Counted from the first letter of the stretch, positions 24,303 through 54,005 are shown. The stretch is 64,000 bases of DNA from Bacteroidales bacterium UBA5762 (GCA_002418865.1 DIEY01000003.1:31062-95061); one strand, 5' to 3'. Numbers and translations: made by a program. Notes: generated by a model not told the origin, from the sequence alone.

Positions 24303-24836
24303 ATGGAAAGCTTAGAAAAAATAAAGAAAAGAATAGAAGTTATTCAAGGTGACATTACTCGATTTGAGGGAGATGCCGTAGTCAATGCGGCTAATTCTTC
24401 ATTGAGAGGTGGAGGTGGAGTAGATGGTGCAATTCATAGGGCTGCTGGGCCCCTTTTGCTCGAGGCTTGCAAAAAATTTGATGGTTGTCCAACAGGTGAT
24501 GCAGTATTAACACCTGGTTATAATTTAAAAGCGCAATGGGTGATACATACCGTAGGACCTATTTGGAGAGGTGGCAACCACGATGAAGCTAATCTTTTGG
24601 CATCGTGTTATCTGAAATGTTTAAGCCTGAGTTTCGAAAACAAATTCAGGCAGGTAGCTTTCCCCAATATTAGTACAGGAATTTATGGTTTCCCCAAAAA
24701 AGATGCAGCCCAAATTGCCATCAATACGGTTACACAATTCTTGCAATCGCATGAGTTTCCGCAAGAAGTCATCTTTGTGTGCTATGATACAGAGAATTAC
24801 TCGATTTACCGAGAAATGCTATCTTCAATTTTCTAA
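24303..24836 (+). CDS. ymdB: Macro-domain protein (O-acetyl-ADP-ribose deacetylase, YmdB-like)
   Basis: Motifs: GDITRFEGDAVVNAAN, GGGGVDGAIHRAAG and ISTGIYGFP. Confidence 0.87.
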   Translation: MESLEKIKKRIEVIQGDITRFEGDAVVNAANSSLRGGGGVDGAIHRAAGPLLLEACKKFDGCPTGDAVLTPGYNLKAQWVIHTVGPIWRGGNHDEANLLASCYLKCLSLSFENKFRQVAFPNISTGIYGFPKKDAAQIAINTVTQFLQSHEFPQEVIFVCYDTENYSIYREMLSSIF

Positions 24837-26140
24837 ATACCGATTTCCATTGCTTTTTTAGAAGATTTTTGAGGATTCCATGCATCACGGTATGATGATT
24901 TGAACAATATCTCCCTCAAATAAGCGATTGTTCTTACAGTCCTCATGTAATAACCATTATAAATCATCATGAGTGGAATATACATAAATAACTTCCATTC
25001 CTGGCTTCTACGTTCGGAAAGCATCATTGCCAAAGTAAACTGAAAAGTCGAACCTATGCCATAAATAATGAATTTGAGGGGAATAAGAAAGAGCAAAAAG
25101 TCAAAGTTGGTAACAAGAAGATTTATTGCATAAATCCACCAGAAAAAATCAAGAATTAAATTATAGAAAATATTTTCCCACAGCGCAAAGAAGTTAATGA
25201 ACGAAAAATTAGCCTGAGGCAAATAAATATCATGGTGTTTGCGGAGTCGAAAACGAATCAAAGATTTAGACCAACGCATACGCTGGCGTGAGAGTGCCGA
25301 GAAAGACGATGGAACGTTGGTAAGACTAACGGCATTGGCTGCAAAACGAATTTTAAAATCGAGTTTACGCATTTTAATGGTCAAGTCACCATCTAAACCT
25401 GGGCCTACGTCCCATCCGCCAAGTCGTAAGAGAACATCTCTTCTGAAAGCTCCAAAAGCCCCCGATATGATACGATATATTCCCAAATAAGAAGTCACAA
25501 CTCTCCCCACGCTAATTGTTTGAAGATATTCTATAGCCTGTAAACTTGTAGCAATACTTTCATGGATGTTTCTAACCTTTACATTGCCTCCCACTCCTCC
25601 TACATTATCTTCCATATAAAATGGAACAAGTATATTTTCAATTGCATTACGATCGAAAGAAGTATCGGCATCTACATGAATGACAAATTTTCCATGCGCA
25701 TATCTCAGTCCTAAATTAGCTGCACTGGCCTTTCCTCCCCTTATATCATTCCGTAAATAAACATCTATGAGTCCATTTTCCTTTAAATCCCTACATATCA
25801 GGTAAGTATCATCATCCGAAGCATCGTCTACGATGATAAATTCAAGATTAGTATAGGTTTGTTCCCTAAGGCCATTAACCAGTTTAAAAATATGTTGCCC
25901 TTCATTTCTTCCTGGTACAATGATAGAGACTAAGGGGTTCTCGGCTAAAAGTTCATAACGGGCGCGTTTGAAATTCAACTTGTTTCTTCGGCTTTGGAAC
26001 AGAATAATCCCTAAAATAATAACATCCAGTATTACAAAACGTGGGGCTTCAATATAGAAGTAATACCAAAATAAATTGATAATTCTAATCAACCCTTCAT
26101 GTTCAATACTATAAAAGAAATTATCCCAAAATGTAAACAT
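24833..26140 (-). CDS. Processive family-2 glycosyltransferase (PgaC/NodC/cellulose-synthase-like polysaccharide synthase)
   Basis: N-terminal TM helices, then SIIVPGRNEG, IVDDASDDD (aa 103-111), GGKASAANLG, HVDADT (DxD, aa 155-160), GLDGDLT (aa 248-254) and QRMRW (QxxRW, aa 286-290), followed by 3-4 C-terminal TM helices. Confidence 0.85.
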   Translation of the reverse strand: MFTFWDNFFYSIEHEGLIRIINLFWYYFYIEAPRFVILDVIILGIILFQSRRNKLNFKRARYELLAENPLVSIIVPGRNEGQHIFKLVNGLREQTYTNLEFIIVDDASDDDTYLICRDLKENGLIDVYLRNDIRGGKASAANLGLRYAHGKFVIHVDADTSFDRNAIENILVPFYMEDNVGGVGGNVKVRNIHESIATSLQAIEYLQTISVGRVVTSYLGIYRIISGAFGAFRRDVLLRLGGWDVGPGLDGDLTIKMRKLDFKIRFAANAVSLTNVPSSFSALSRQRMRWSKSLIRFRLRKHHDIYLPQANFSFINFFALWENIFYNLILDFFWWIYAINLLVTNFDFLLFLIPLKFIIYGIGSTFQFTLAMMLSERRSQEWKLFMYIPLMMIYNGYYMRTVRTIAYLREILFKSSYRDAWNPQKSSKKAMEIGI

Positions 26141-26157
26141 ATAATTTTCCCTTTATT

Positions 26158-27543
26158 TTATAACATGATGAGTTCGCCAATGATTTCGTTATGACTTTTA
26201 TACCCAGAAATAGGAATGGCTTTTATAATAAGGTTTATATGAATGTTTGGTAAACTACTTAAAAGAAGTTTTAAAAGCGATTGCCTTATATTTTCGAGCA
26301 CATTATGCAGCCGGGCTGGTTCGCTATCGGGTGAAATGATTAAAAATGTATTGTTGTTAATAAACGAAAGGATATCCGTAGACGTGGTTGCATTTTTCAT
26401 AAAATCGGCAATTTCAGTAACAAGTTTGCTATAACCTACCCCTAATTTATGCCTATCTGCATCGGCTAACGACAATATCAGACTTCCCGCCGAACTCAGG
26501 CGATTGTTATTTTTTGCCCTTTCGATTTCATATTTAAGGAAAATGTTGAAAGTTGTAAATGTAATAAATCCAGGTAGATCTAATTCTTCTTTTATTTCCT
26601 TTCCAAAACCATGTAAGGCGGTTTCTTCACCAATAGGTGTAAGTTCGAAGCTATAAATCTGCTTATCGATCAATGTTTCAACCGGATTATGTTTTTGACA
26701 CGAAAAGCAAAATGCTTCCATATTAGGTTCTTGAAAAGTATTCAAACAATTTCTACAGGTATAAACCAAAGAAGGTTTATCATAATCTACCCCTATATGT
26801 CTGAGCATACGGTTACATTTTGGACAAACCAAATAATCCCCACTGTGAAAATCATGCTCGGGCCCCACATAAGCGCATACAAAATGATGTATAAGGTTTT
26901 CGGTTACTAAATCTCCCGAACCACATTTTGGGCAAGTTTCTCTATAATTGATGAAACTCGAATAACAATTGCTGCATAAGTGTAAGCGATCGACAAACTT
27001 TGGCTTGAAAAATTCCCGATTAATCAAGTCATCTGTTAAACGAAACATATCCGAAATGTTCCCATTATTATAATGTTCGGAAAGAATAGGATAACTATAG
27101 CCTAAGCTCGAATGCGGGTCAACAATAGGCTGAAGTTTAATTTCTCTTGTATATAAATATCTCATGATCTTTGTCATGATTCTAATATCAGGTGTATCCG
27201 AATCAACAGTAGTCAGATTAGCCTGACGCGATTTTAGTTTATCAATTTTTGTAATAATTCCTTCAACCTGGAGAGACGAAATAATCCCATCGCTCATAGA
27301 TTCAACCTTTGGATCAATATTTTTTTCGATAGAATATATGAATATAGGGATTAAATAAATTGAGCCAATAAAGGAGGATCTGCACTGACGCAAGAGCTTC
27401 AAGCATCCTGTAGCATCGGTATAATCAAGAATCAAAGCATCATATAAAGCAAGCTGCCGAATATCAGATTCTTCGTAGAGAGTTATATAGGCTATTTCTC
27501 TATTATAAATGTTGGGTAGTTTAGTAATTCTTAGCTCAGCCAT
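26158..27543 (-). CDS. Cytoplasmic multi-CxxC zinc-ribbon protein with a degenerate GGDEF-like C-terminal domain (putative regulator of the adjacent synthase)
   Basis: Five CxxC pairs lie within aa 190-282 (CSNC, CPKC, CPKC, CRNC, CFSC). Residues 322-450 align by eye to a GGDEF fold, with NNNTF in place of GGDEF and TSTD in place of the RxxD I-site. There is no TM segment. Gaps to the neighbouring genes are 17 and 31 nt. Confidence 0.6.
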   Translation of the reverse strand: MAELRITKLPNIYNREIAYITLYEESDIRQLALYDALILDYTDATGCLKLLRQCRSSFIGSIYLIPIFIYSIEKNIDPKVESMSDGIISSLQVEGIITKIDKLKSRQANLTTVDSDTPDIRIMTKIMRYLYTREIKLQPIVDPHSSLGYSYPILSEHYNNGNISDMFRLTDDLINREFFKPKFVDRLHLCSNCYSSFINYRETCPKCGSGDLVTENLIHHFVCAYVGPEHDFHSGDYLVCPKCNRMLRHIGVDYDKPSLVYTCRNCLNTFQEPNMEAFCFSCQKHNPVETLIDKQIYSFELTPIGEETALHGFGKEIKEELDLPGFITFTTFNIFLKYEIERAKNNNRLSSAGSLILSLADADRHKLGVGYSKLVTEIADFMKNATTSTDILSFINNNTFLIISPDSEPARLHNVLENIRQSLLKLLLSSLPNIHINLIIKAIPISGYKSHNEIIGELIML

Positions 27544-27574
27544 ATATGAATTTTCTCCTATTTCGCATTGAAGC

Positions 27575-28645
27575 CTATAATTTAGAGATGGTTAATTTTA
27601 CCGTAAACTGGTAATAAGTAATCCATCGTACGCGCTCCAGTTCATCAAAAGGATAAACTTCAGCAATTACAGTCCTTTGATTTTTCCCTCTTATGGCTCT
27701 AAATTCTTCAGGTACTTCTTCTGTAATTAAATATATATCCTTGATGATTCCTTTACTACGAGAACCATCCATAAAACTTAGTTCAACTATATCGTTCAAC
27801 CTGAAATACTCAAGATTCTCCTGAGGAATGTAAGCCTTAATAAAGATTTTATCTAAATTGCTAATGAATAATGCAGCTTCCTTCTTATAAGTTATCCCTT
27901 TGAGTGGGGTATTAATTTTAGATATGATACCATTTACGGGTGAAATGTAGTAATAATCTATTCTTTGTTGACCACCGGCTCCCATAGAACTTCCACTTAT
28001 ACTTACATTAGCCGATAATTGCTGCTTCTGTAATTCTTCTAATTGCCTCAAATAAATATAAAGCTGAGAAAGTTCCTGATTCGATTTCGTTAAATCAATA
28101 CGATAGTCATCGAGTAACATTTTTTGCTGTTTCAGTACTACAGGAGGATACACATCGAGGTAAACTTCCAATTTCATTTTCTCAATCAAATCCTGCGTTT
28201 TACTAATTCTTTGTTTTACATCAGAGATATCAATTTGCTTTAACTGTATATTTCGCTTGGTAAGGCTAATTTCGCGCAAGAGCCAATTGCTCGTACCCTC
28301 TCCATCACTCAACGAAATAGTTGCATTTAGTTCATTATCATCATCGAAAAATTCAGTTCTGTATCTGAACAAAGTATCCCCAGCTTTTACCGTATCCCCC
28401 TCATTAACAAAATATTCCATAATCTTCATGTCATTCATCTCCATTACATCAAAACGACCCGTAATGACTTCACCCAAAGCCGAAGCAGATACATTACGGC
28501 GAATTAAATAAATGATAAGGCTCGTAATAAGCAAAATAAAGATAATCAAATAGATAATTCTATCTATATTGCTTCTTCTGCGGGGTTGCTCTTCCTTAAT
28601 CCCCGTTATTACACTCGCCTTATTTTGAAATTTAAACTGCTTCAC
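27575..28645 (-). CDS. HlyD-family periplasmic adaptor (membrane-fusion protein)
   Basis: One N-terminal TM helix (IIYLIIFILLITSLIIYLI), a lipoyl-like hairpin (VNEGDTVKAGDTLFRY ... SPVNGIISKI), a long coiled coil between them and a C-terminal beta-barrel. Confidence 0.8.
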   Translation of the reverse strand: MKQFKFQNKASVITGIKEEQPRRRSNIDRIIYLIIFILLITSLIIYLIRRNVSASALGEVITGRFDVMEMNDMKIMEYFVNEGDTVKAGDTLFRYRTEFFDDDNELNATISLSDGEGTSNWLLREISLTKRNIQLKQIDISDVKQRISKTQDLIEKMKLEVYLDVYPPVVLKQQKMLLDDYRIDLTKSNQELSQLYIYLRQLEELQKQQLSANVSISGSSMGAGGQQRIDYYYISPVNGIISKINTPLKGITYKKEAALFISNLDKIFIKAYIPQENLEYFRLNDIVELSFMDGSRSKGIIKDIYLITEEVPEEFRAIRGKNQRTVIAEVYPFDELERVRWITYYQFTVKLTISKL

Positions 28646-28679
28646 AAATTCTTCTATGCTATTAAATTATCGTATTCTT

Positions 28680-30806
28680 TTATTGAACTTTATTAATCGA
28701 TCGTGCATCATTCTCAAGTAATCTTCTTAAATCATGTATCGCTATTTCATTGATTCCCAATTTAATTATGATTTGATTGATGAAATTCTCCAACATAAGA
28801 CGATCAGTAAAATCATTTGGACTTAAAACTATTACAGTCTTGTCCTTGCTTATTTCCATTTCTTCTGAAAGTTTGCCTTCTACATAAGCAATATCAGGAT
28901 GCTCGTAGGCCATAACAAAAACCTTATCACTTAATCCGTAGATCATAGGTAAATAAGCTTCGGGATAAAAAACAGGAATGGAGACACTCAGCTCTAATTG
29001 ATGCTCATCGCAATACTGCCTGGCCGCATTCAACAAATCGAGATAAGCACCCATGCTGGCTTCCTGATTGGTTTTATATTGTGTAAGCGTATGAGGCTCA
29101 ATATCGAGATGTATGCCTTGTAAAACAACTTGCTGATATTTTCCCAATAATTCGAGAAGTGCTTCCTTGCCCTTGTCCAAAAGACTATTGTGCCCTATAA
29201 GCAAATGAACTTTAATATGTTGGCCGTTGCATTTAAAAACAAAATCTTGAAGTTTTGCAATATCGCTCTCCTGAGCTGAAACCAAGACTTCACTAATTCC
29301 ATTATTTTTAAGGTATGCTATAATGTGTTCATTTGTAACTTTTTTAAACTGTTCTGACCAGATATAAATGTATCTGTATCCATTGTATTTTATGCCCATT
29401 TCCTCAGGATTGAATACGGTAATAAAATCGTTAGGATTATCGGTATCAAGGTAAGTGAAAATCTTTAACAATTTCAAATACATATCTTTTTTCAAATCCA
29501 CGAGTTCAATTTCAACGGCCAATTTTTCATCCAGAATTTGCATGACACGGAGCGGGCTATAAGCTTCATCTTCGAAGTCACTCATAACGATTTCTTTTCT
29601 AAGTCGTTCTTCAATTAGTAACTTTTTGAAATAGAAAGAGGTAAATTGCATTTTCTTGAATTGAAATTCATAGTAATGATTGAGCAATTCATTTGCAGAG
29701 GCGAAATTTTCTATATCTTGTTCATTTTCTACTATCTGTAAACGAGCATCTATTTCTTTTGCTGAACTGCTACCAAACTTAATGGGCGCACTTGCAGCCA
29801 AACCTACCGAAGCATAATTTCTGAAATGAGAAGGTGTAGGCTGCATGATATTATAACGAAAAAATGGTCTGACTACGAAATCATTCCACCGCCAATGTTC
29901 GGCCTTATATCTTTCGAGCTGCAAAGCCTTTGCCTCTTCATGCATTCCCGATTGATTGAATAGGCTTATCATCTTTTCTGGGTCAATATCAAAAACCGGC
30001 AAGTAAGCATCGCGGAATGTCTCATCCATAAAAATTTCAGGAATGCCTTCCCTGAGTTTAGTATTAAAATATACTTTGTTATCATTAATTAATGCTTCGA
30101 GCTCAGCTGCCTTACTTTGAAGTTCAAGTAGCTGCTCCCAAGAAGCAATCCTTAGCAAATACATTTGTTGGGCAATACGAAGCTGCTCATCCACTACTTG
30201 TTTCCTATGTGCTAATAATAAAGCCTTCTCACGCTTGAAAAGATATGTAATATAAGCATATAAGTAAAGATAAGAGGTTTGTTTAGTTTGCAATTTCTGT
30301 TCTAATAAAGCTAAATCTCTTTGTTTTTCAATAGCCTTGACCTTGGATTTGTTGGCAAATAAACCGCTGTTGAGCAAATCCCATTCTATTCCGAGATACA
30401 ATCTGCGAACGTAGGAAATATCTTCATCAGTAATAACCCCTGTCTTAAAATTCTCCTGATAGTTAGTTACAAACCTTAAACCAGGGTCGGAACGATAATT
30501 CTTTATCTGACTTTCGTAGAGTTCGATAAATGCGTCTGATTGATTCATTAGGCTATAATCGTTTGCAAATAACATATGTAATAAAGCAGTATCACTTATC
30601 ATTTTTTGAGGTACTACCTGATTCAACTCTGTTAGTAAAAATGAATCAACCTGATAAGCTATTTGTTTTAGGCTCAAACTGTCAATGTTCTTTATGGGAT
30701 ACTTTAGTTTCTGAGCAAGTGTAAACCCCTCTGGGAACAACAAAATAACAGTAGCAATGAAAATTATCTTAAATAAATATTTCAATATATTAATTGGTAT
30801 ATGCAT
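28680..30806 (-). CDS. Fusion protein: TolC/OEP-like outer-membrane-factor N-terminal half plus a C-terminal (beta/alpha)8 glycoside-hydrolase-like domain
   Basis: A signal-like N-terminus ends in LAQ. Residues 40-460 alternate short amphipathic beta segments (GLRFVTNYQENF, LYLGIEWDLL, ASVGLAASAPI) with long heptad helices, as outer-membrane factors do. Residues ~475-708 show eight hydrophobic strand / helix repeats, with GIHLDIEP at the end of strand 4. Confidence 0.55.
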   Translation of the reverse strand: MHIPINILKYLFKIIFIATVILLFPEGFTLAQKLKYPIKNIDSLSLKQIAYQVDSFLLTELNQVVPQKMISDTALLHMLFANDYSLMNQSDAFIELYESQIKNYRSDPGLRFVTNYQENFKTGVITDEDISYVRRLYLGIEWDLLNSGLFANKSKVKAIEKQRDLALLEQKLQTKQTSYLYLYAYITYLFKREKALLLAHRKQVVDEQLRIAQQMYLLRIASWEQLLELQSKAAELEALINDNKVYFNTKLREGIPEIFMDETFRDAYLPVFDIDPEKMISLFNQSGMHEEAKALQLERYKAEHWRWNDFVVRPFFRYNIMQPTPSHFRNYASVGLAASAPIKFGSSSAKEIDARLQIVENEQDIENFASANELLNHYYEFQFKKMQFTSFYFKKLLIEERLRKEIVMSDFEDEAYSPLRVMQILDEKLAVEIELVDLKKDMYLKLLKIFTYLDTDNPNDFITVFNPEEMGIKYNGYRYIYIWSEQFKKVTNEHIIAYLKNNGISEVLVSAQESDIAKLQDFVFKCNGQHIKVHLLIGHNSLLDKGKEALLELLGKYQQVVLQGIHLDIEPHTLTQYKTNQEASMGAYLDLLNAARQYCDEHQLELSVSIPVFYPEAYLPMIYGLSDKVFVMAYEHPDIAYVEGKLSEEMEISKDKTVIVLSPNDFTDRLMLENFINQIIIKLGINEIAIHDLRRLLENDARSINKVQ

Positions 30807-31386
30807 CCCTATAATTATTCTTTTTTTAGTCTCTAATCTTATACCAGATGTCGATTATTCACCTTCTCTGTATGCACACATCTTCAGTTATCCATAAAAC
30901 TCTAAGAGTTTTTTGAATAGGAATCATTTACTTACAAAAACTAAGAATTTTTTCTAACATTAATATTTCAATCGTTCATTTCGAAAAATTTCGCAACACT
31001 TTCCTAAATATAGAAAAAGTCTGTTCCATTTTGAAACTAGTTGTTGAAGATCGTGAGACACTAAGTATATAAGAACGAATGAAATGTAGGATTCAAGCCT
31101 AAATTGTGCAAAAAGATGTATGGGGAAGTTTAAATGGGAATATTTCTACCAAAGGCTCACCCTTAAGTAATCTGCTTTAAATGCTGATTCTATTCCATTA
31201 AGAATTATATAGTGCAGAAAGTAAAAACAATTCAGTCGTATTTTTAATCCTCAAATTAAATATTTTATGGTGCCGATTCAGGCAAAACAAAATTAACATA
31301 AATGATGTCTATTCGAAAAAAGGCTTAATTTTACCAGAAACTTCAAGTAATAAAAATATTAGGTAATTTAAAATCCTTCTCTAGGA

Positions 31387-32970
31387 ATGGACATTTTTAT
31401 TATAGCAGACGATGATACTTCTGAGAGTTTAAAAAATTCTATCCAGAAGTTTGGGCACAGGGTAGTTGGAAGAAACGTAAATATAACCAAAGCCTTAAAT
31501 CTTATTGATGAAATAAAACCTAACATAGTAATCCAATCTTTAAGCAGCATTGTCGAAAATAGATGGGTAGAATTGGATAAGGTTATTAGGACGAAGGGTC
31601 TTTCAGTATTATATATCATCAGTCGCTCACAGGAAGAAGTATTAAAAAAAGAATTACCCGGAAAATCAGTAAATTATATTATTCAGCCTTTTAGTGATGA
31701 GGAGCTCAATCATGCAATTGAAGATAGCCTAAGTTCTTCCATTATTGATGAAACAGGATATGAAATCCATTTAATGGAACATCTCTTAAACGAAGTGAAT
31801 TTTGCCTTCATCCTAACCGATAAAGTTGGTATCATTTCATACATTAATAAATCGGCCATCGAATTACTCGATATCGAAAACAAAAATTCCACGCTAAGAG
31901 GTTTCTTATTACAAGATGTCGTCAATTTGCTGGATGAGACAACCGAAAACCCCATACACCTCATTTTCAGTTCTCAAAATCAACCCTCAGATAAAACCTA
32001 TGGTGAGGCTATATTACTGACTCATAGAGGACAAAAATTAAATGTTTTATACACATTTAAACCTTTGCATAATTTGGCAGAAGAAATGATAGGATTTTTA
32101 TTGTCATTTCAGGATATAAGTCCACTAAAAGAACTATTTGCCATTTTGCAACGCAAAAACGAGCTACTTGAAGCACGACTTACCGAAAGAACCAACAACT
32201 TATTAAATCAAAATATTTTGCTCGAAAAAGAAATCAATCAACGTTTAAGATTTGAAAAAGAACTTGAACAAGCTTTATTAAAAGCAAAAGAAAGCAATCG
32301 GTTTCGCAGCAATATAGTTTCAACGCTATCGCATGAATTTCGCACCCCACTCACTACTATACAAAGCTCGGTAGATATCATCGAACGCCTTATCGGCAAT
32401 TCTCCCGAAAACGATAAAATTCACAAACATTTTCTGCAGATAAAAAAGTCAATCAAAACTTTAAGTGAAATGCTTAACGATGTTCTCGAGATAGAGAAAG
32501 CAGATAATCAAGCAGAACTTGAGCTAAGCGTTATCAAGCCACTCGATTTTTTTGAAGAATTGATTGATAATTATCGATTAGGCATTGGAAGCAAGCATAA
32601 TATTGATTTTCAACATAATGCCATGCCCATGGAGATACAAACCAATCCAAAACTCCTCTCTCAAATTATGAGCAATTTGGTTTCTAATGCTTGCAAATAC
32701 TCTGAAGAGCATACCACGGTAAGAATTATTGTTTTATTTAAAGAGAATGAGTTACAAATACGCGTTTCTGACGAAGGGAAAGGGATATCCAACGAGGACT
32801 TACCGCATATTTTCGAAACTTTTTATCGAAGCAAATCGGTCGAGAACATTCCAGGTAGTGGTCTGGGTTTGTCAATTATAAAAAAAGCCATTGATGCCCT
32901 CCATGGTGAAATTAAGGTAAAAACCACCATCAATAAAGGAACCCGATTCACTATACATTTACCATTATAA
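31387..32970 (+). CDS. Soluble sensor histidine kinase: pseudo-receiver + PAS + HisKA + HATPase_c
   Basis: H-box STLSHEFRTPL, N-box NLVSNACKYS, G1 SDEGKGI and G2 GSGLGLSI. The N-terminal 115 aa have receiver topology (FIIADDD), but Q50 replaces the phospho-Asp and Q100 replaces the conserved Lys. No TM helices. Confidence 0.85.
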   Translation: MDIFIIADDDTSESLKNSIQKFGHRVVGRNVNITKALNLIDEIKPNIVIQSLSSIVENRWVELDKVIRTKGLSVLYIISRSQEEVLKKELPGKSVNYIIQPFSDEELNHAIEDSLSSSIIDETGYEIHLMEHLLNEVNFAFILTDKVGIISYINKSAIELLDIENKNSTLRGFLLQDVVNLLDETTENPIHLIFSSQNQPSDKTYGEAILLTHRGQKLNVLYTFKPLHNLAEEMIGFLLSFQDISPLKELFAILQRKNELLEARLTERTNNLLNQNILLEKEINQRLRFEKELEQALLKAKESNRFRSNIVSTLSHEFRTPLTTIQSSVDIIERLIGNSPENDKIHKHFLQIKKSIKTLSEMLNDVLEIEKADNQAELELSVIKPLDFFEELIDNYRLGIGSKHNIDFQHNAMPMEIQTNPKLLSQIMSNLVSNACKYSEEHTTVRIIVLFKENELQIRVSDEGKGISNEDLPHIFETFYRSKSVENIPGSGLGLSIIKKAIDALHGEIKVKTTINKGTRFTIHLPL

Positions 32971-33030: not shown

Positions 33031-34281
33031 CTATTTAGAAACCTGGTTAAATCTTGCAACGGTAGAAAAATTATAAACAATCCCATCATTAGACGTAATT
33101 TTTCCTATTATATAAATGCTTTGAGTACCTATTTGAGGGCGATCGGATTTTACTCGAAACTTAAGTGATACTTTATCCATATCGGGTAATGGATTGTAAT
33201 AAATTGCAACATTTCTTGAATTGGCCACAAAAACAGCCTCTTCGATTTCTTGGTCCAAAGCAGTATATTCCATTGGCAATAAAATCTTTATTTCGGCTCG
33301 GCCTTTTATTTCACCTTTGTTTATTTCAATAGAAACTATAAAACTTTCGTTGCCTTTCACCTGATCGGGTACCCAGCAAATTGCATCTACTTTATTGGCT
33401 TCTTTTGTTACAACATCCTTCGAGGATATCATTTCTTCCTTTTGGGTAGTTTCTTGAGCTTGTTGTTCAGAGCTCAACCCTTCTTGTAATTGTCGCTGTT
33501 TCCATGAAGCACTGGTTTCTTTTCCATTATCCGAAGTTGATGAAGGCTTATCGTTTTTAAAATTGAATGAATACCCCAAACCAACAGACGTATATTGTAA
33601 TACATCCTTCTTGCCAGTAGTTCCCTCATACGCATCCAGTTGGTCACTATTTGAACCTAAATAAGCTGTTTCGAGCGAAAGCAAGAATTTTTCAGACAAA
33701 TGAATATCGAAACCCAGCCCAAGAGAAAAATCACCCTCGAGCATGCGGCCATTAATTCCACTGCCTTCACCATCACCTACACTCCGTATAAATATTTCAG
33801 AGGGATACTTGTATAAATCTGCTTTATAGTTCATTAATCCAATGCCCGCAATCCCGTATAATCGCGTAGTGTATTCCTCCTTTTTATTTCTGAAAAAAGA
33901 AGTAAAATCATAAGTGGTTTCTAAACTCGTTTGAAAAAGATCGGATCTGAATGAATAATACTCAATCCCAACATCTCTGCGACCAGCATATTCCCCATTG
34001 ATTACTCTTCCTCTTACACCCCATGCTGGTGTTATTTGTTTGGTTAAGCTTAATCCATAACCCAATCTCCAGTCTCGAGGATATGGGATGGGATAAGATG
34101 CTCCCTTAATAACTACAAGATCACCATAATAAAACATTGCGCCCGAATGTAGATCTATACGCCAATTCTTCCAAAATGAGGATACTGTAGTATCCTGCTT
34201 TTGTGCCATTAGATGAATACTGCCGACCATCAGACTAATTAAGATCAACAGAACCTCTATATTCATTTTTCTCCTAAACAT
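33031..34281 (-). CDS. Outer-membrane beta-barrel protein with a Q/E/S-rich linker and a C-terminal beta-rich domain
   Basis: Signal peptide (LMVGSIHLMAQ). The first ~240 aa have alternating-hydrophobic strands ending in aromatics (GLGYSFNF). A low-complexity linker is followed by a ~130 aa domain of unknown function. Confidence 0.55.
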   Translation of the reverse strand: MFRRKMNIEVLLILISLMVGSIHLMAQKQDTTVSSFWKNWRIDLHSGAMFYYGDLVVIKGASYPIPYPRDWRLGYGLSLTKQITPAWGVRGRVINGEYAGRRDVGIEYYSFRSDLFQTSLETTYDFTSFFRNKKEEYTTRLYGIAGIGLMNYKADLYKYPSEIFIRSVGDGEGSGINGRMLEGDFSLGLGFDIHLSEKFLLSLETAYLGSNSDQLDAYEGTTGKKDVLQYTSVGLGYSFNFKNDKPSSTSDNGKETSASWKQRQLQEGLSSEQQAQETTQKEEMISSKDVVTKEANKVDAICWVPDQVKGNESFIVSIEINKGEIKGRAEIKILLPMEYTALDQEIEEAVFVANSRNVAIYYNPLPDMDKVSLKFRVKSDRPQIGTQSIYIIGKITSNDGIVYNFSTVARFNQVSK

Positions 34282-49457: not shown

Positions 49458-50690
49458 ATGGAACATAATCTAATAACTTCTTTCACAGAATTCAAAGATT
49501 ATAAAAATATCGATAGAGAGATGCTGATGCGCATCTTAGAAGATGTTTTCCGTCACACCTTAATAAAGAAATTTGGTACCGACGAAAACTTCGACATCAT
49601 TGTAAACATTGACAAGGGCGACCTTGAAATATGGAGAACACTAACTATAGTGGAAGATGGCAAACTTACCGATCCCAACAAAGAAATAGAATATTCGGAA
49701 GCCATAAAGCTTGAACCCGATTTCGAAGTTGGCGAGCAAGTTTATCAAGAAATTAAGCTCGAAGATTTTGGGCGTCGAGAAATACTTACCATACGACAAA
49801 ATCTTATTAGCAAGATTCAGGAATACGAAAAAGATAATGTTTATCGTAAATATAAGGACAAGGTTGGGGAAATTATTACAGGAGAAGTTTATCAAATTTG
49901 GAAAAAGGAGATTCTTGTACTCGATGATGAAGGCATTGAGCTCACCTTGCCCAAAAGCGAACAGATACCTCACGATCATTACCGCAAGGGTGATACCATT
50001 AGAGCAGTAGTATCTAATGTTGAGCTGCGTAATAATCAACCCATTATCATTCTTTCGCGCACTTCACCGCTTTTTCTCGAAAAACTTATCGAACAAGAAG
50101 TACCCGAAGTTTATGATGGACTTATCACTATAAAGAAAATTGTAAGAGTCCCTGGCGAAAGAGCCAAGGTAGCTGTTGAATCTTATGATGATCGCATCGA
50201 CCCTGTTGGAGCTTGTGTGGGCATGAAAGGTTCACGAATTCATGGAATTGTGCGTGAGTTGCGAAACGAAAACATTGATGTGATTAATTATACCTCTAAC
50301 CCAAGTCTTTACATCCAGAGAGCCCTGAGCCCAGCAAAAGTTTCTTCCATCGTCATTGATGAAGAAAACAAGAGAGCCGAAGTTTATATGAAACCCGACC
50401 AAGTTTCGCTTGCCATTGGTAAAGGTGGTTATAACATCAAACTTGCCGGCAAACTCACAGGTTACGAAATCGACGTTTACCGTGACACTGATATTGAATA
50501 TGAAGATGTTGATTTACAGGAATTCTCAGATGAAATCGATCAATGGATTATCGAAACTTTCAAATCTATTGGCCTCGACACGGCTAAAAGCGTTTTGAAT
50601 GAAAGCGTAGAAGAATTGATCCGTAGAACCGACCTCGAGGAAGAAACTATCCTTGAGGTTAGAAAGATATTACAGGCCGAATTCGAATAA
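49458..50690 (+). CDS. nusA: Transcription termination/antitermination factor NusA
   Basis: N-terminal domain, S1 domain (GEIITGEVYQI), tandem KH domains (GACVGMKGSRI, AIGKGGYNIKLA). Confidence 0.95.
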   Translation: MEHNLITSFTEFKDYKNIDREMLMRILEDVFRHTLIKKFGTDENFDIIVNIDKGDLEIWRTLTIVEDGKLTDPNKEIEYSEAIKLEPDFEVGEQVYQEIKLEDFGRREILTIRQNLISKIQEYEKDNVYRKYKDKVGEIITGEVYQIWKKEILVLDDEGIELTLPKSEQIPHDHYRKGDTIRAVVSNVELRNNQPIIILSRTSPLFLEKLIEQEVPEVYDGLITIKKIVRVPGERAKVAVESYDDRIDPVGACVGMKGSRIHGIVRELRNENIDVINYTSNPSLYIQRALSPAKVSSIVIDEENKRAEVYMKPDQVSLAIGKGGYNIKLAGKLTGYEIDVYRDTDIEYEDVDLQEFSDEIDQWIIETFKSIGLDTAKSVLNESVEELIRRTDLEEETILEVRKILQAEFE

Positions 50691-50775
50691 GTTATCACAT
50701 TTATAAGTTATCTTCAAAAAACTAAAAAACCCTTGTCATAATACAATAAACACTTATTATTTCATAATTATCGAC

Positions 50776-50783
50776 TAATTTTG
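50776..50783 (+). promoter_or_regulatory. Candidate internal -7 element TAATTTTG upstream of infB
   Basis: Exact TAnnTTTG in the 123-nt nusA-infB spacer, 31 nt before the ATG. I saw no -33 TTTG. Confidence 0.35.
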
Positions 50784-50813
50784 CAAAAATTATAGGGTAT
50801 CGAAAAAACATTT

Positions 50814-53800
50814 ATGTCAGAAGAAAAAATATCGATAAGGCTCAGTAAAATTGCGACTGAATTCAATGTTGGGATTAGTACTATAGTGGAAGACCTGGCC
50901 AAAAAAGGTCATAAAATAGAAAATAATCCCAACACAAAGATTCCAGCCGAGCTATATGAATTATTACGAAAATTGTATGAACCTGACAAAAAAATAAAAG
51001 AGTCTGTCGACAAAAAAAACATTTCTTCCTTTAAAAAAGAAATTCCATTACCTGAAACTAAAAAGATAAAAGACGATGCTTTAGCTGAAACTGAAGCTGA
51101 AAGTATTATTATTAAAGAAAATCTGATAAGGCCAGAAATGCTTCCTTCAACTAGGATGACAACTGCCCCTACAGAAAAGGAAGTCGTTACCACTACCGAG
51201 AAACAGCTCACAGCAGAAAGTAAACATAATATTTCTAAAGAAGAAGTCGAAGAAATTCCTATTCAATCGACCATTCAAGAGATGATGCCAGGGCCTAAAA
51301 TCTTAGGCAAGATTGACCTCGAAAAACAGAAACCTCCTAAAAAAACAACTAAACCACCTATTCCAAAAAAGGAAACTCCAAAACAAAAAATTGAGCCTTC
51401 AATAAACGTAGCTAAAAATGTTGAAGAGGAATTTGCAGTCGACATTGAAACCACAACGCCCAAAGAAATTCCAACTACAGTTATACCCAAAGAAAAACAA
51501 ACGCCTAATCCACAACCTATAGCTGAAAATTTAACAAAAGCCGAAGACAAGACACCGCAGCCCGAATTTGCGGAATCTATCGAGCTAAATAAGGAATCTA
51601 TCGAAGAACCACAGTTTGAGATAGCGCAAAGCCCTAATATCGAAAGTGAAGAAATCAAAATAAAAGAAACTGCAGAAACGGAAAAAATTTCTGTTGATGA
51701 ACTAGAACTGAGTCCAAAATCTGAAATTAAAGAGGAGCCGCCCGCTGAAGAAGTTGCTACAGAAGAAAAAAACACAAAACCAGACAATTTTATTCCAACC
51801 CAAGTTGACAAATTATCCGGCCCTACTATTGTTGGGAAGATAGATTTAGAACAGGTTAAAGAAAACAAACACGTCACAAAGCAGCCAATAGCCACTTCTG
51901 CCGATGTAATTGGGAAAAAATCGAAAAAAAAGAAAAGGAAAAGAATTAGTAGCGAAAGTTCTGTAACAAACGAGAATGTTATTAAGAATGAAACAACGCC
52001 TAAAACACATAAGCCTGTAGTTCATAAAGTTAGTGAAAAAAAGGCCAAATTAAAAGAACGTAAGGAAATTAAAGAAGAGATAAAGCCTGAACTAAGCGAA
52101 GAAGAAATTCAAAAAAAGGTAAAAGAAACTCTTTCGGCACTCAAGTCACAAAGCAGCCCATCGTCGAAAACGGCTAAAATAAGGCGAGCTAAAAGAGCTG
52201 CCCAATTAGAAAAAAACGCTCGAAGACTCGAAGAAGAAGAAGAACAGAAAAAAATACTAAAAGTCAGCGAGTTCCTTACGGCTAACGAATTGGCCACATT
52301 AATGAATGTTCCCGTAAATGAGGTAATTAAGACCTGCTTAGATTTAGGTTTGTTCGTATCTATCAATCAGAGGATAGACGCCGAAACCATCAGTATAATC
52401 GCATCTGAGTTTGGTTATGAAGTAGATTTTTCAGAAGAAGAAATCCTCGAAGAAATGGATCAAAAATTTGAAGATAATCCAGAGGATTACATTCCGCGCC
52501 ATCCTATTGTTACAGTTATGGGTCATGTTGATCATGGCAAGACAAAACTTCTCGACTACATTCGCAATTCCAATGTTATTGCTGGGGAATATGGTGGAAT
52601 AACCCAACATATTGGTGCTTATGAAGTAACATTGAGTAATGGCAAAAAGATCACTTTTTTGGATACACCTGGTCATGAAGCCTTTACGGCCATGAGGGCT
52701 CGTGGAGCTAAAATTACAGACATTGCCATTATTGTTGTTGCAGCCGATGATGGAGTGATGCCCCAAACTAAGGAAGCCATCAATCATGCGCTAGCAGCAG
52801 GAGTTCCTTTGGTATTTGCCATCAATAAAATCGACAAACCTACGGCCAATCCCGCTAAAGTGAAGGAGGAGCTTGCCAATATGAATATTCTGGTGGAAGA
52901 TTGGGGAGGAAAATATCAATGTCAGGAGATTTCTGCAAAAACAGGACAAAATGTGGATTTGTTGCTCGAAAAAGTCTTGCTCGAAGCCGAACTGCTCGAC
53001 TTGAAAGCCAATCCCAAACGGCCAGCCACAGGCACAGTCATTGAATCCAGCTTGGATAAAGGTCGTGGTTATGTGGCTAAAATTCTGGTGCAAAATGGAA
53101 CCTTACATCAAGGTGATATCATTGTAGCAGGTAGTGTATATGGTAAGGTAAAAGCCATGTATAATGAACGTAATCAAATGGTGAAGGAAGTCGGCCCTTC
53201 ATCACCTATACTTATATTGGGTCTTACTGGCGCCCCCCAAGCGGGCGATAAATTCAGCGTCTTTCTCGACGATAAAGAAGCCAAAGCTGTTGCCAACAAG
53301 CGACAACAACTTCAACGTGAAATGGAAATTAGAACGCAAAAGCATATTACCCTTGAAGAAATAGGTCGTAGAATAGCTATTGGCGATTTTAAAGAACTCA
53401 ACTTAATTGTGAAAGGTGATGTAGATGGTTCGGTTGAAGCTCTTTCCGATGCTTTATTGAAACTCTCCACGGATGAGGTTCAGGTTAATGTGATCCATAA
53501 GTCGATAGGACAGGTTACGGAAACGGATGTATTGTTAGCTTCAGCCTCAAATGCCATTATTATAGGATTTCAAGTGCGTCCTTCGGCCAATGCCAAAAAA
53601 CTTGCCGAACATGAACAAATTGACATAAGGCTTTATTCTATTATTTATCAAGCAATTGATGAAATAAAAGCCGCCATCGAGGGAATGACATCTCCAAAAA
53701 TCGAAGAAAAAATCGTATGCAATCTCGAAGTAAAAGAGATCTTCAATATCAGCAAGGTTGGCACTGTAGCTGGTTGCATCGTTCTGGATGGTACTATCAA

Positions 53801-54005
53801 TCGGCATACAAGAATTAGGGTCATCCGCGATGGTATTGTTATTCATACAGGCCGTCTTGGTTCCCTCAAACGCTTTAAGGAAGATGTAAAAGAAGTAAAA
53901 GCTGGTCAGGAATGTGGGCTGAATATAGAAGGATTCAATGACATCAAGATCGGTGATATTATTGAGGGTTTCGAAGAAGTAGAAGTTAAAAAAACCATTA
54001 AATAA
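50814..54005 (+). CDS. infB: Translation initiation factor IF-2
   Basis: G-domain motifs [13 protein letters not shown] and NKID. There are two IF2_N-type helical modules and a ~430 aa K/E/P/T-rich low-complexity spacer. Confidence 0.95.

Follow-up and report, generated by a model that had tools for sequence, protein, structure and literature searches.

Four open reading frames (ORFs) on the minus strand of a 64,000-nucleotide (nt) stretch of DNA from Bacteroidales bacterium UBA5762 (GCA_002418865.1 DIEY01000003.1:31062-95061), analyzed here at its full length and referred to as the window, span positions 30806..24833 with spacings of 34, 31, and 17 nt. Gene 1 (28680..30806) encodes a 708-amino-acid (aa) outer-membrane factor (OMF) fused to a TIM barrel, gene 2 (27575..28645) a 356-aa HlyD/EmrA-type membrane-fusion protein (MFP), or periplasmic adaptor, gene 3 (26158..27543) a 461-aa cytosolic regulator with REC-like, TackOD1, and degenerate GGDEF domains, and gene 4 (24833..26140) a 435-aa membrane-embedded, PgaC-like processive family 2 glycosyltransferase (GT2). 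An earlier reading of this DNA, made without database searches (the sequence-only reading), had proposed an exopolysaccharide (EPS) synthase and export operon of four codirectional genes with these gaps, and ORF analysis of the window recovered the genes at exactly those positions. As far as computation can tell, the elements of that reading held, with three corrections given below, and none of its sequence-based refuting conditions came true. The present analysis examines this candidate EPS module by profile searches, structure prediction, and a survey of related loci.

Gene 4 carries the processive glycosyltransferase (GT) signature that the sequence-only reading had pointed out, with DD at aa 105-106, DAD at aa 157-159, and QRMRW at aa 286-290 flanked by transmembrane (TM) segments, as well as GD at aa 251, the position of the catalytic-base motif. 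A TM helix lies at the N terminus and further TM helices follow QRMRW, with the protein ending shortly after the last of them, and it is the sole polytopic inner-membrane protein of the operon. Pfam assigned the product to Glycos_transf_2 (84.4 bits) and to several GT2 families, including Chitin_synth_2. The best NCBIfam model was TIGR03937 PgaC_IcaA, aligned over aa 33-409 with 152 bits against a cutoff of 422, while NodC scored 72 bits and TIGR03030 CelA scored 9.2 bits. Over the catalytic domain, the identity with Escherichia coli PgaC was 28% (E value, 2e-28). No PilZ or other sensor domain was found in the GT with Pfam or NCBIfam. These scores set gene 4 apart as a distinct family of PgaC-like processive synthases.

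Family comparison identifies gene 2 as an HlyD/EmrA-type MFP, the partner named in the sequence-only reading. A profile built from 22 orthologues matched HlyD of the HlyBD complex (8dck) with an E value of 3.3e-9 and EmrA (4tko) with an E value of 4e-9, as well as ZneB and MacA, and Pfam HlyD_3 was matched by 21 of the 22 family members. The protein has a single N-terminal TM helix (aa 30-48). Adaptors of the HlyD/EmrA type serve partners without large periplasmic domains. Within the short cytoplasmic segment before the helix (aa 26-32), N26 and Y32 are invariant and W27 and D28 are at least 90% conserved among the 22 orthologues; through this motif, the MFP may contact the synthase or the regulator.

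The gene 1 product begins with a signal peptide (hydrophobic at aa 7-29) that lacks a lipobox cysteine, and it contains one Pfam OEP repeat (29.1 bits against a cutoff of 22). Searching the PDB directly with the 708-aa sequence returned no match, and structure prediction was therefore needed. The AlphaFold2 (AF2) model, built on 16 homologues with a predicted local distance difference test (pLDDT) score of 81, has the topology of a TolC protomer, with beta-hairpins at aa 110-142 and 311-339, each followed by helices of 60 to 70 residues. Foldseek aligned the model with TolC (7ng9) with a best E value of 5e-12 over about 420 columns, which is essentially the whole target, at a TM score (target) of about 0.6, and further matches included ST50, SilC, CusC, OprM, OprN, CmeC, VceC, and MtrE. 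As modeled, the N-terminal half, whose OMF-type domain covers about aa 45-455 (29442..30674), is a complete TolC fold, in agreement with what the sequence-only reading had expected there. When 1.84 billion cluster representatives were searched exhaustively, 582 relatives of the OMF-barrel protein emerged, 223 of them at E values of ≤1e-30; among the 150 matches listed, nearly all formed a single stretch across both halves, with lengths of about 660 to 720 aa. The channel-barrel fusion is, from these alignments, a coherent family and no local accident.

To survey the distribution of the module, relatives of gene 3 were collected with one genome per species, and synteny was examined by tblastn in the best 80 loci of at least 575 genomes. 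At least 575 species genomes carry a relative of this TackOD1 protein, and the order OMF-barrel, MFP, TackOD1, and GT with short gaps was found in about 76 of the 80 loci, the exceptions being mostly contig ends. This synteny, which reaches across phyla and which the sequence-only reading had required of related genomes, is far beyond chance. The flanks vary by clade, which indicates that the four genes behave as a unit. No ABC, RND, or MFS transporter, porin, tetratricopeptide repeat (TPR) protein, deacetylase, or PgaD-like gene occurs in the conserved set of these roughly 76 syntenic loci. GT9 proteins, small GT2 proteins, Crp-family regulators, USP-like proteins, and aromatic amino-acid genes were considered as members of the module and rejected as clade-specific flanks.

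Such linkage bears on whether the MFP and OMF are an ordinary efflux or type I conduit for an unlinked transporter, with the GT merely coregulated (for example, in envelope remodeling) and its product not passing through the channel. The nearest MFP structures do come from the HlyBD and EmrAB systems, TolC-family channels are promiscuous (PMC13438883), and the role of TolC is possibly indirect in both precedents for its use in polysaccharide export, cyanobacterial cellulose and rhizobial glucan (PMC13438883, PMC12430437). However, the cassette contains no transporter gene in about 76 loci whose flanks are otherwise unrelated, the four-gene order is strictly conserved across phyla, and drug or protein export would offer no obvious use for a polysaccharide-hydrolase-like barrel on the OMF. 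An ordinary conduit thus appears quite improbable.

Carriers of the module are mostly Bacteroidota, including Bacteroidales, Prolixibacteraceae/Draconibacterium, Flavobacteriales (among them Crocinitomicaceae and Salibacteraceae), Roseivirga, and Chitinophaga, and others are contigs binned as Nitrospirota, Desulfuromonadales, and Hydrogenothermaceae. At 57% GC throughout, the contig assigned to Nitrospirota is a credible occurrence. A contig labeled Arenicella (locus L062) is probably misbinned; its flanking clusters (c5, c13, c14, c11, c39-42, and c55-56) are those of Crocinitomicaceae loci, and it has 36.5% GC. The sequence-only reading knew of no described Bacteroidota equivalent. No published description was found in the literature searched here either, and the module is not confined to Bacteroidota. 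In one further locus (L027, from the Bacteroidota metagenome-assembled genome ELA429), a TackOD1 protein and a truncated MFP-like ORF are present with no OMF or GT, and RNase R is encoded next to them; this locus is probably a decayed or rearranged cassette.

The C-terminal part of the gene 1 product, about aa 460-708 (28683..29429), is an eight-stranded beta/alpha barrel according to the AF2 model and its DSSP pattern. Besides generic aldolase barrels, its Foldseek neighbors all belong to glycoside hydrolase family 18 (GH18), including SleL, chitinases, and endo-beta-N-acetylglucosaminidase, with E values of about 1e-4. Pfam GH18 (PF00704) was matched by 9 of 24 diverse barrel members (best E value, 6e-7). 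The barrel family profile matched chitinases and chitotriosidase with E values of 0.01 to 0.04, placing GIHLDIE over DGIDVDWE and MAYE over MAYD, and hhalign aligned the barrel with a profile of nine annotated GH18 domains in the same register (Prob, 65%; E value, 6e-5; 88 columns). The motif H566-L-D568-I-E570 (29097..29111) on strand 4 aligns with DxxDxDxE of GH18 and is a putative catalytic motif, and M632-A-Y634-E on strand 6 aligns with MxYD; in the model, both sit at the C-terminal ends of their strands, as in GH18. H566-L-D568, E570, and M632-A-Y634 do not vary among 16 close homologues, and H566, D568, E570, and Y634, with several other residues, are at least 90% conserved in the 24 diverse copies. 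A PgaB-type hydrolase was rejected, since the barrel showed no detectable relation to PgaB (E value, 0.22). The barrel is, as predicted, glycoside-hydrolase-like with a GH18-like core, without being assigned to GH18 itself, and the hydrolase-like domain noticed on the OMF by the sequence-only reading is thereby given a fold. A profile search for annotated relatives of the barrel returned only 8 proteins, all unannotated, of which two were standalone copies. Standalone barrel homologues of about 240 to 265 aa occur outside cassettes in unrelated contexts, at L082:5145-5936 (P0145) and L081:3651-4370 (P0147, Salinibacter).

The barrel is predicted to be periplasmic. In the 971-aa Draconibacterium-type fusion of locus L017, the barrel is followed by a low-complexity linker and a C-terminal SPOR domain (L017:8582-8851; Pfam, 24.7 bits against a cutoff of 21), and the presence of this peptidoglycan-binding domain after the barrel in some variants indicates that the barrel lies in the periplasm. 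The C terminus of TolC itself lies in the periplasm, which fits this location. Similar long OMF-barrel variants occur in loci L013-L025 and L028-L037; the similar-looking tail of L028 was below significance for SPOR.

Whether the barrel is a hydrolase can be asked against a noncatalytic alternative, in which it would bind polysaccharide, as chi-lectins do, or serve as a peptidoglycan anchor. Many members of GH18 are inactive lectins, the canonical DxxDxDxE is reduced here to HxDxE, an acid is swapped or lost in some clades (HYEID in L017 and HLDVD in L073), and the GH18 scores are subthreshold. However, D568, E570, and Y634 are invariant in the close homologues and at least 90% conserved across the 24 diverse members, and they are located at the C-terminal ends of strands 4 and 6, the site of catalysis in GH18. 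A noncatalytic barrel is accordingly considered unlikely.

The nature of the product is the weakest step. A beta-linked polymer containing N-acetylhexosamine, similar to poly-N-acetylglucosamine (PNAG) or to chitin, is most likely but a guess, drawn from the affinity of the GT to PgaC, NodC, and chitin synthase and from the GH18-like core of the barrel; GH18 chemistry depends on the N-acetyl group of the substrate. The module might instead export short oligosaccharides, such as NodC-like chito-oligomers or similar signals, with the barrel setting chain length rather than acting on a high-molecular-weight polymer. In favor of this, the GT also matches NodC (72 bits) and Chitin_synth_2, a hydrolase tethered permanently to the exit channel could serve as a ruler, and the operon encodes no deacetylase or other modifying enzyme. 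However, the alignment with PgaC/IcaA is twice as strong and is full length, including the C-terminal TM region, and a conduit of TolC scale with a dedicated adaptor would be excessive for oligomers. NodC products normally leave the cell via NodIJ-type ABC transporters, which also counts against oligosaccharide export, and this explanation is considered very improbable.

Gene 3 contains TackOD1 (PF18551), a zinc ribbon at aa 123-301 (26641-27177), with 190.9 bits against a cutoff of 32 (E value, 2e-56). Its invariant CxxC/HxxC residues are C190, C193, C223, C240, C243, C279, C282, and H219/H220. In the AF2 model (pLDDT, 88), TackOD1 is flanked by two extra domains that Foldseek aligned with the REC-GGDEF proteins WspR, PleD, and DgcR, and the protein has no TM segment. 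The N-terminal REC-like domain (aa 1-110; 27214-27543) aligns in fold with the REC domains of WspR and PleD, lacks helix 1 in the model, and carries Asp40 at the end of strand 3, which is kept in 52 of 60 homologues. The C-terminal 140 aa or so (degenerate GGDEF fold, aa 325-461; 26161-26571) superpose on GGDEF domains with a root mean square deviation of about 3 Å. In the window, the GGDEF motif position reads NNNTF and the RxxD of the inhibitory-type site (I-site) reads TSTD; the GG[DE]EF motif is absent in 60 of 60 aligned homologues and in 78 of 78 locus copies, so the gene 3 protein cannot be a diguanylate cyclase. The zinc-ribbon/GGDEF-like regulator of the sequence-only reading is thus present with TackOD1 and the GGDEF fold as described, with the correction that none of the members examined has a catalytically active GGDEF domain.

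The neighbors of the cassette may point to the inputs of this regulator. The only neighbors that recur across clades are the REC/HisKA/HATPase hybrid kinases of cluster c4. Of the 80 loci, 41 encode a kinase of this cluster, and in 39 it lies within two genes of the cassette. In 70 loci with at least three of the four flanking genes visible, the I-site was scored at the position homologous to the RxxD of GGDEF domains. The I-site and an adjacent c4 kinase were mutually exclusive: no locus had both, 29 had the I-site and no adjacent kinase, 32 had the kinase and no I-site, and 9 had neither. Asp40, at the phospho-acceptor position of the REC-like domain, is retained by 35 of the 39 kinase-linked copies versus 13 of 29 I-site copies. 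The pattern suggests that lineages feed different inputs into one switch protein, with two interchangeable inputs, cyclic di-GMP (c-di-GMP) or a phosphorelay. The window copy, with TSTD, Asp40, and a divergent kinase, appears to be of the kinase-linked, phosphorelay type. The divergent gene (31387..32970, plus strand), which represents the c4 kinases in the window, encodes a 527-aa PAS-HisKA-HATPase sensor kinase, as identified with Pfam, and likely provides the regulator with its signal in this lineage.

TackOD1 takes its definition from archaeal response regulators, in which it is an output domain, and it resembles the zinc-binding insert of PriA; its function was called obscure (PMC5847659), the sole paper mentioning TackOD1 found in our literature search. 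That definition would also fit a protein acting in transcription, as a response-regulator-like zinc ribbon that binds DNA or another nucleic acid and is not an allosteric partner of the synthase; the 580-nt leader without a recognized element is compatible with such a role. However, the gene always lies between the MFP and GT genes within the operon, the degenerate REC-GGDEF proteins of EPS systems (BcsE and PelD) act posttranslationally (PMC8892547), and the synthase itself lacks a sensor domain such as PilZ. A transcriptional role is therefore held to be unlikely, and a posttranslational switch is preferred.

According to the Whitney and Howell definition of synthase-dependent EPS secretion, the module shares the processive inner-membrane GT (D, D, D, QxxRW) with TM segments on both sides. 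It has no TPR scaffold or porin and carries an HlyD-type MFP and a TolC-fold OMF instead. In the place of the c-di-GMP receptor stands a degenerate GGDEF fold, with RxxD absent in the window and present in 29 of the 70 scorable loci, and in the place of the periplasmic hydrolase stands the TIM barrel with the GH18-like core, a putative enzyme. Tripartite efflux and type I secretion systems share the TolC-fold OMF and the MFP with the module, whereas their energized ABC, RND, or MFS transporter is neither in the operon nor in the conserved set of about 76 loci. In the alginate system, Alg8 is a GT2 synthase whose partner, Alg44, bears a periplasmic MFP-like domain, as in the module. However, Alg44 carries PilZ and passes the polymer to AlgK/AlgE (TPR scaffold and porin), not to a TolC-type channel.

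The nearest relatives of the synthase are in the PgaABCD/IcaADBC systems for poly-beta-1,6-GlcNAc, with the same motif set and TM layout. The module differs in having no PgaD, CE4 deacetylase, or PgaA TPR-porin, and the gaps of 17 to 34 nt leave no room for a PgaD gene. The absence of PgaA, PgaB, and PgaD from the operon had already been pointed out; with a GT score of 152 against 422 bits for PgaC/IcaA, 28% identity, and empty literature searches, no homologue was traced to a characterized, named pathway. Unlike the synthases of BcsA, Xcs, and Bgs type, the PgaC-like GT scored 9.2 bits with CelA and has no PilZ or C-terminal c-di-GMP site. The regulator resembles BcsE (a degenerate REC-GGDEF "GIL" sensor of c-di-GMP) and PelD (a receptor with a degenerate GGDEF I-site) in being a cytosolic protein with a dead GGDEF domain after a degenerate receiver, encoded in an EPS operon, with RxxD kept in those 29 loci, although sequence comparison detected no homology to either. 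It differs from both by the 180-aa multi-CxxC TackOD1 between the REC-like and GGDEF-like domains and by the loss of the I-site in the window lineage, where REC-type hybrid kinases adjoin instead.

Two systems come closest in export architecture. In cyanobacterial cellulose synthesis (Xcs), as the Maeda 2018 work is described in PMC12430437 and PMC8892547, the XcsA synthase acts with the HlyD-like XcsB, the TolC-like Tlr1605, and the endoglucanase XcsC. TolC is encoded outside the operon, the model is unvalidated, and a review names the lacking operon linkage as a weak point (PMC12430437). The module resembles Xcs in combining a GT2 synthase, an HlyD-type adaptor, and a TolC-type channel, which replace BcsB and BcsC, with an associated glycoside hydrolase, and differs in that its OMF is dedicated, lies in the operon, and is fused to the hydrolase-like domain and in that it has a separate TackOD1/degenerate-GGDEF regulator. 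The sequence-only reading held that a synthase-HlyD-TolC arrangement had been proposed only for this cyanobacterial cellulose synthase, which proved too narrow, as genetic evidence also exists for BgsBA and TolC of Sinorhizobium meliloti (PMC13438883). For its mixed-linkage glucan, TolC was reported in 2026 to be genetically required for the BgsBA polymer, and a tripartite complex was proposed, with an indirect role being possible (PMC13438883). The likeness lies in the two-gene core of MFP (BgsB) and GT2 synthase (BgsA) with TolC; the differences are a housekeeping TolC encoded elsewhere, c-di-GMP binding by BgsA itself, no hydrolase fusion or zinc-ribbon regulator, and a glucan polymer (PMC13438883). 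No description of the module was found in full-text literature searches, whose scope excluded many subscription papers. The module is uncharacterized, widespread, and probably a variation on synthase-dependent EPS secretion.

The four folds or families and their strict genetic linkage are established by these comparisons, and from them we infer the export function: the operon is probably a self-contained, synthase-dependent module that makes a polysaccharide and exports it across the envelope through a conduit of the efflux-pump type. The GT2 would polymerize a nucleotide-sugar at the inner membrane and thread the chain through its own TM channel, and the HlyD/EmrA-type adaptor would link to a trimeric TolC-type channel, through which the polymer would cross the periplasm and the outer membrane. 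The MFP and OMF pair would stand in for the TPR scaffold and 16- to 18-strand porin of Pga, Bcs, Alg, and Pel. The GH18-like periplasmic barrel may trim the polymer or clear misrouted polymer, similar to BcsZ, the C-terminal domain of PgaB, PelA, and AlgL. The gene 3 protein would be a posttranslational switch of the synthase, analogous to BcsE or PelD (PMC8892547), which in the window most likely receives a phosphoryl signal from the divergent PAS histidine kinase and in other lineages likely binds c-di-GMP at the retained RxxD I-site. More broadly, the module may represent an unrecognized, widespread class of EPS machine, a portable four-gene unit in which a TolC-type channel with its own periplasmic glycosidase and an HlyD adaptor replace the TPR-porin and a REC-like/TackOD1/dead-GGDEF switch is rewired between c-di-GMP and phosphorelay; the case for this wider reading is evenly balanced.

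Several points weigh against this interpretation. The function of the module is read from genes and predicted structures, the contacts among GT, MFP, and regulator are putative, and cotranscription of the four genes is supposed from their short gaps. The window MFP on its own scored 28.1 bits with HlyD_D23, just below the cutoff of 30, and its NCBIfam matches are also weak. For the barrel, the relationship to GH18 is moderate (hhalign, 65%): the window copy scored 17.8 bits with Pfam GH18 against a cutoff of 29.6, hhalign against a single chitinase was not significant, and the best PDB match of the barrel profile was an entry labeled "putative GH97 from Cellulomonas fimi" (5.5e-5). The REC-like domain has no Pfam Response_reg match, and neither the acidic pair nor the lysine of a receiver was located in it. 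The exclusion between I-site and c4 kinase (Fisher's exact P = 7.6e-12) comes from phylogenetically clustered loci, so that the P value overstates their independence, and in 11 Crocinitomicaceae-type I-site loci, a different kinase (HisKA_2/MASE6) is convergent downstream, which may be mere local synteny.

The module bears on whether TolC-type channels export polysaccharides directly. In both precedents, TolC is encoded elsewhere and could act indirectly, whereas a synthase, an adaptor, and a dedicated channel in one operon in hundreds of species are the genomic signature of a physical complex. Judged from gene content and linkage, the module is strong genomic evidence for a second route of EPS export in bacteria, and its compact four-gene form allows a test of the TolC-export model. 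If the proposed switch is correct, it would give TackOD1 its first functional context and would provide a natural experiment in which second-messenger and phosphorelay control are swapped on one synthase. The distribution of the module also points to an uncharacterized matrix polymer in environmental and anaerobic Bacteroidota.

Between the operon and the sensor kinase gene lies a divergent intergenic region of 580 nt (30807..31386), within which the operon promoter is presumed to be located. One TAnnTTTG box was found in this leader, 489 nt upstream of the operon start codon, with no other found. Sigma-70 promoters and intrinsic terminators showed no excess over shuffled sequences in the operon or its leader, as expected for Bacteroidota. 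Neither the operon nor the leader had an Rfam match at an E value of ≤1 for a riboswitch or other known RNA, and the whole window yielded three tRNAs only. At the other end, the stop codon of the GT gene overlaps by 4 nt (24833-24836) the end of a convergent plus-strand gene for a 177-aa protein (24303..24836), which leaves no space for a terminator between them. Antiphage defense was considered and rejected, with zero PADLOC matches.

Among the neighbors, a 416-aa minus-strand protein (33031-34281) with a weak OMP_b-brl match is convergent with the sensor kinase, and its homologues (cluster c12) hold the same position in 11 related Bacteroidales loci; it could be a member of a local regulon or merely a case of conserved synteny. 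In Fluviicola- and Vicingaceae-type loci, the cassette adjoins a protein of about 1,000 aa with Lamin-tail, CotH-kinase, and Por_Secre_tail (type IX secretion sorting) domains (L061:12609-15632; cluster c24 in L045, L046, L047, L061, L063, L068, L069, and L080). Elsewhere in the window, the AT skew peaks at 50001-54000, with values of 0.26 and 0.16 versus about 0.0 to 0.1 in other parts, and this peak coincides with a plus-strand ORF of 1,063 aa at 50814..54005.

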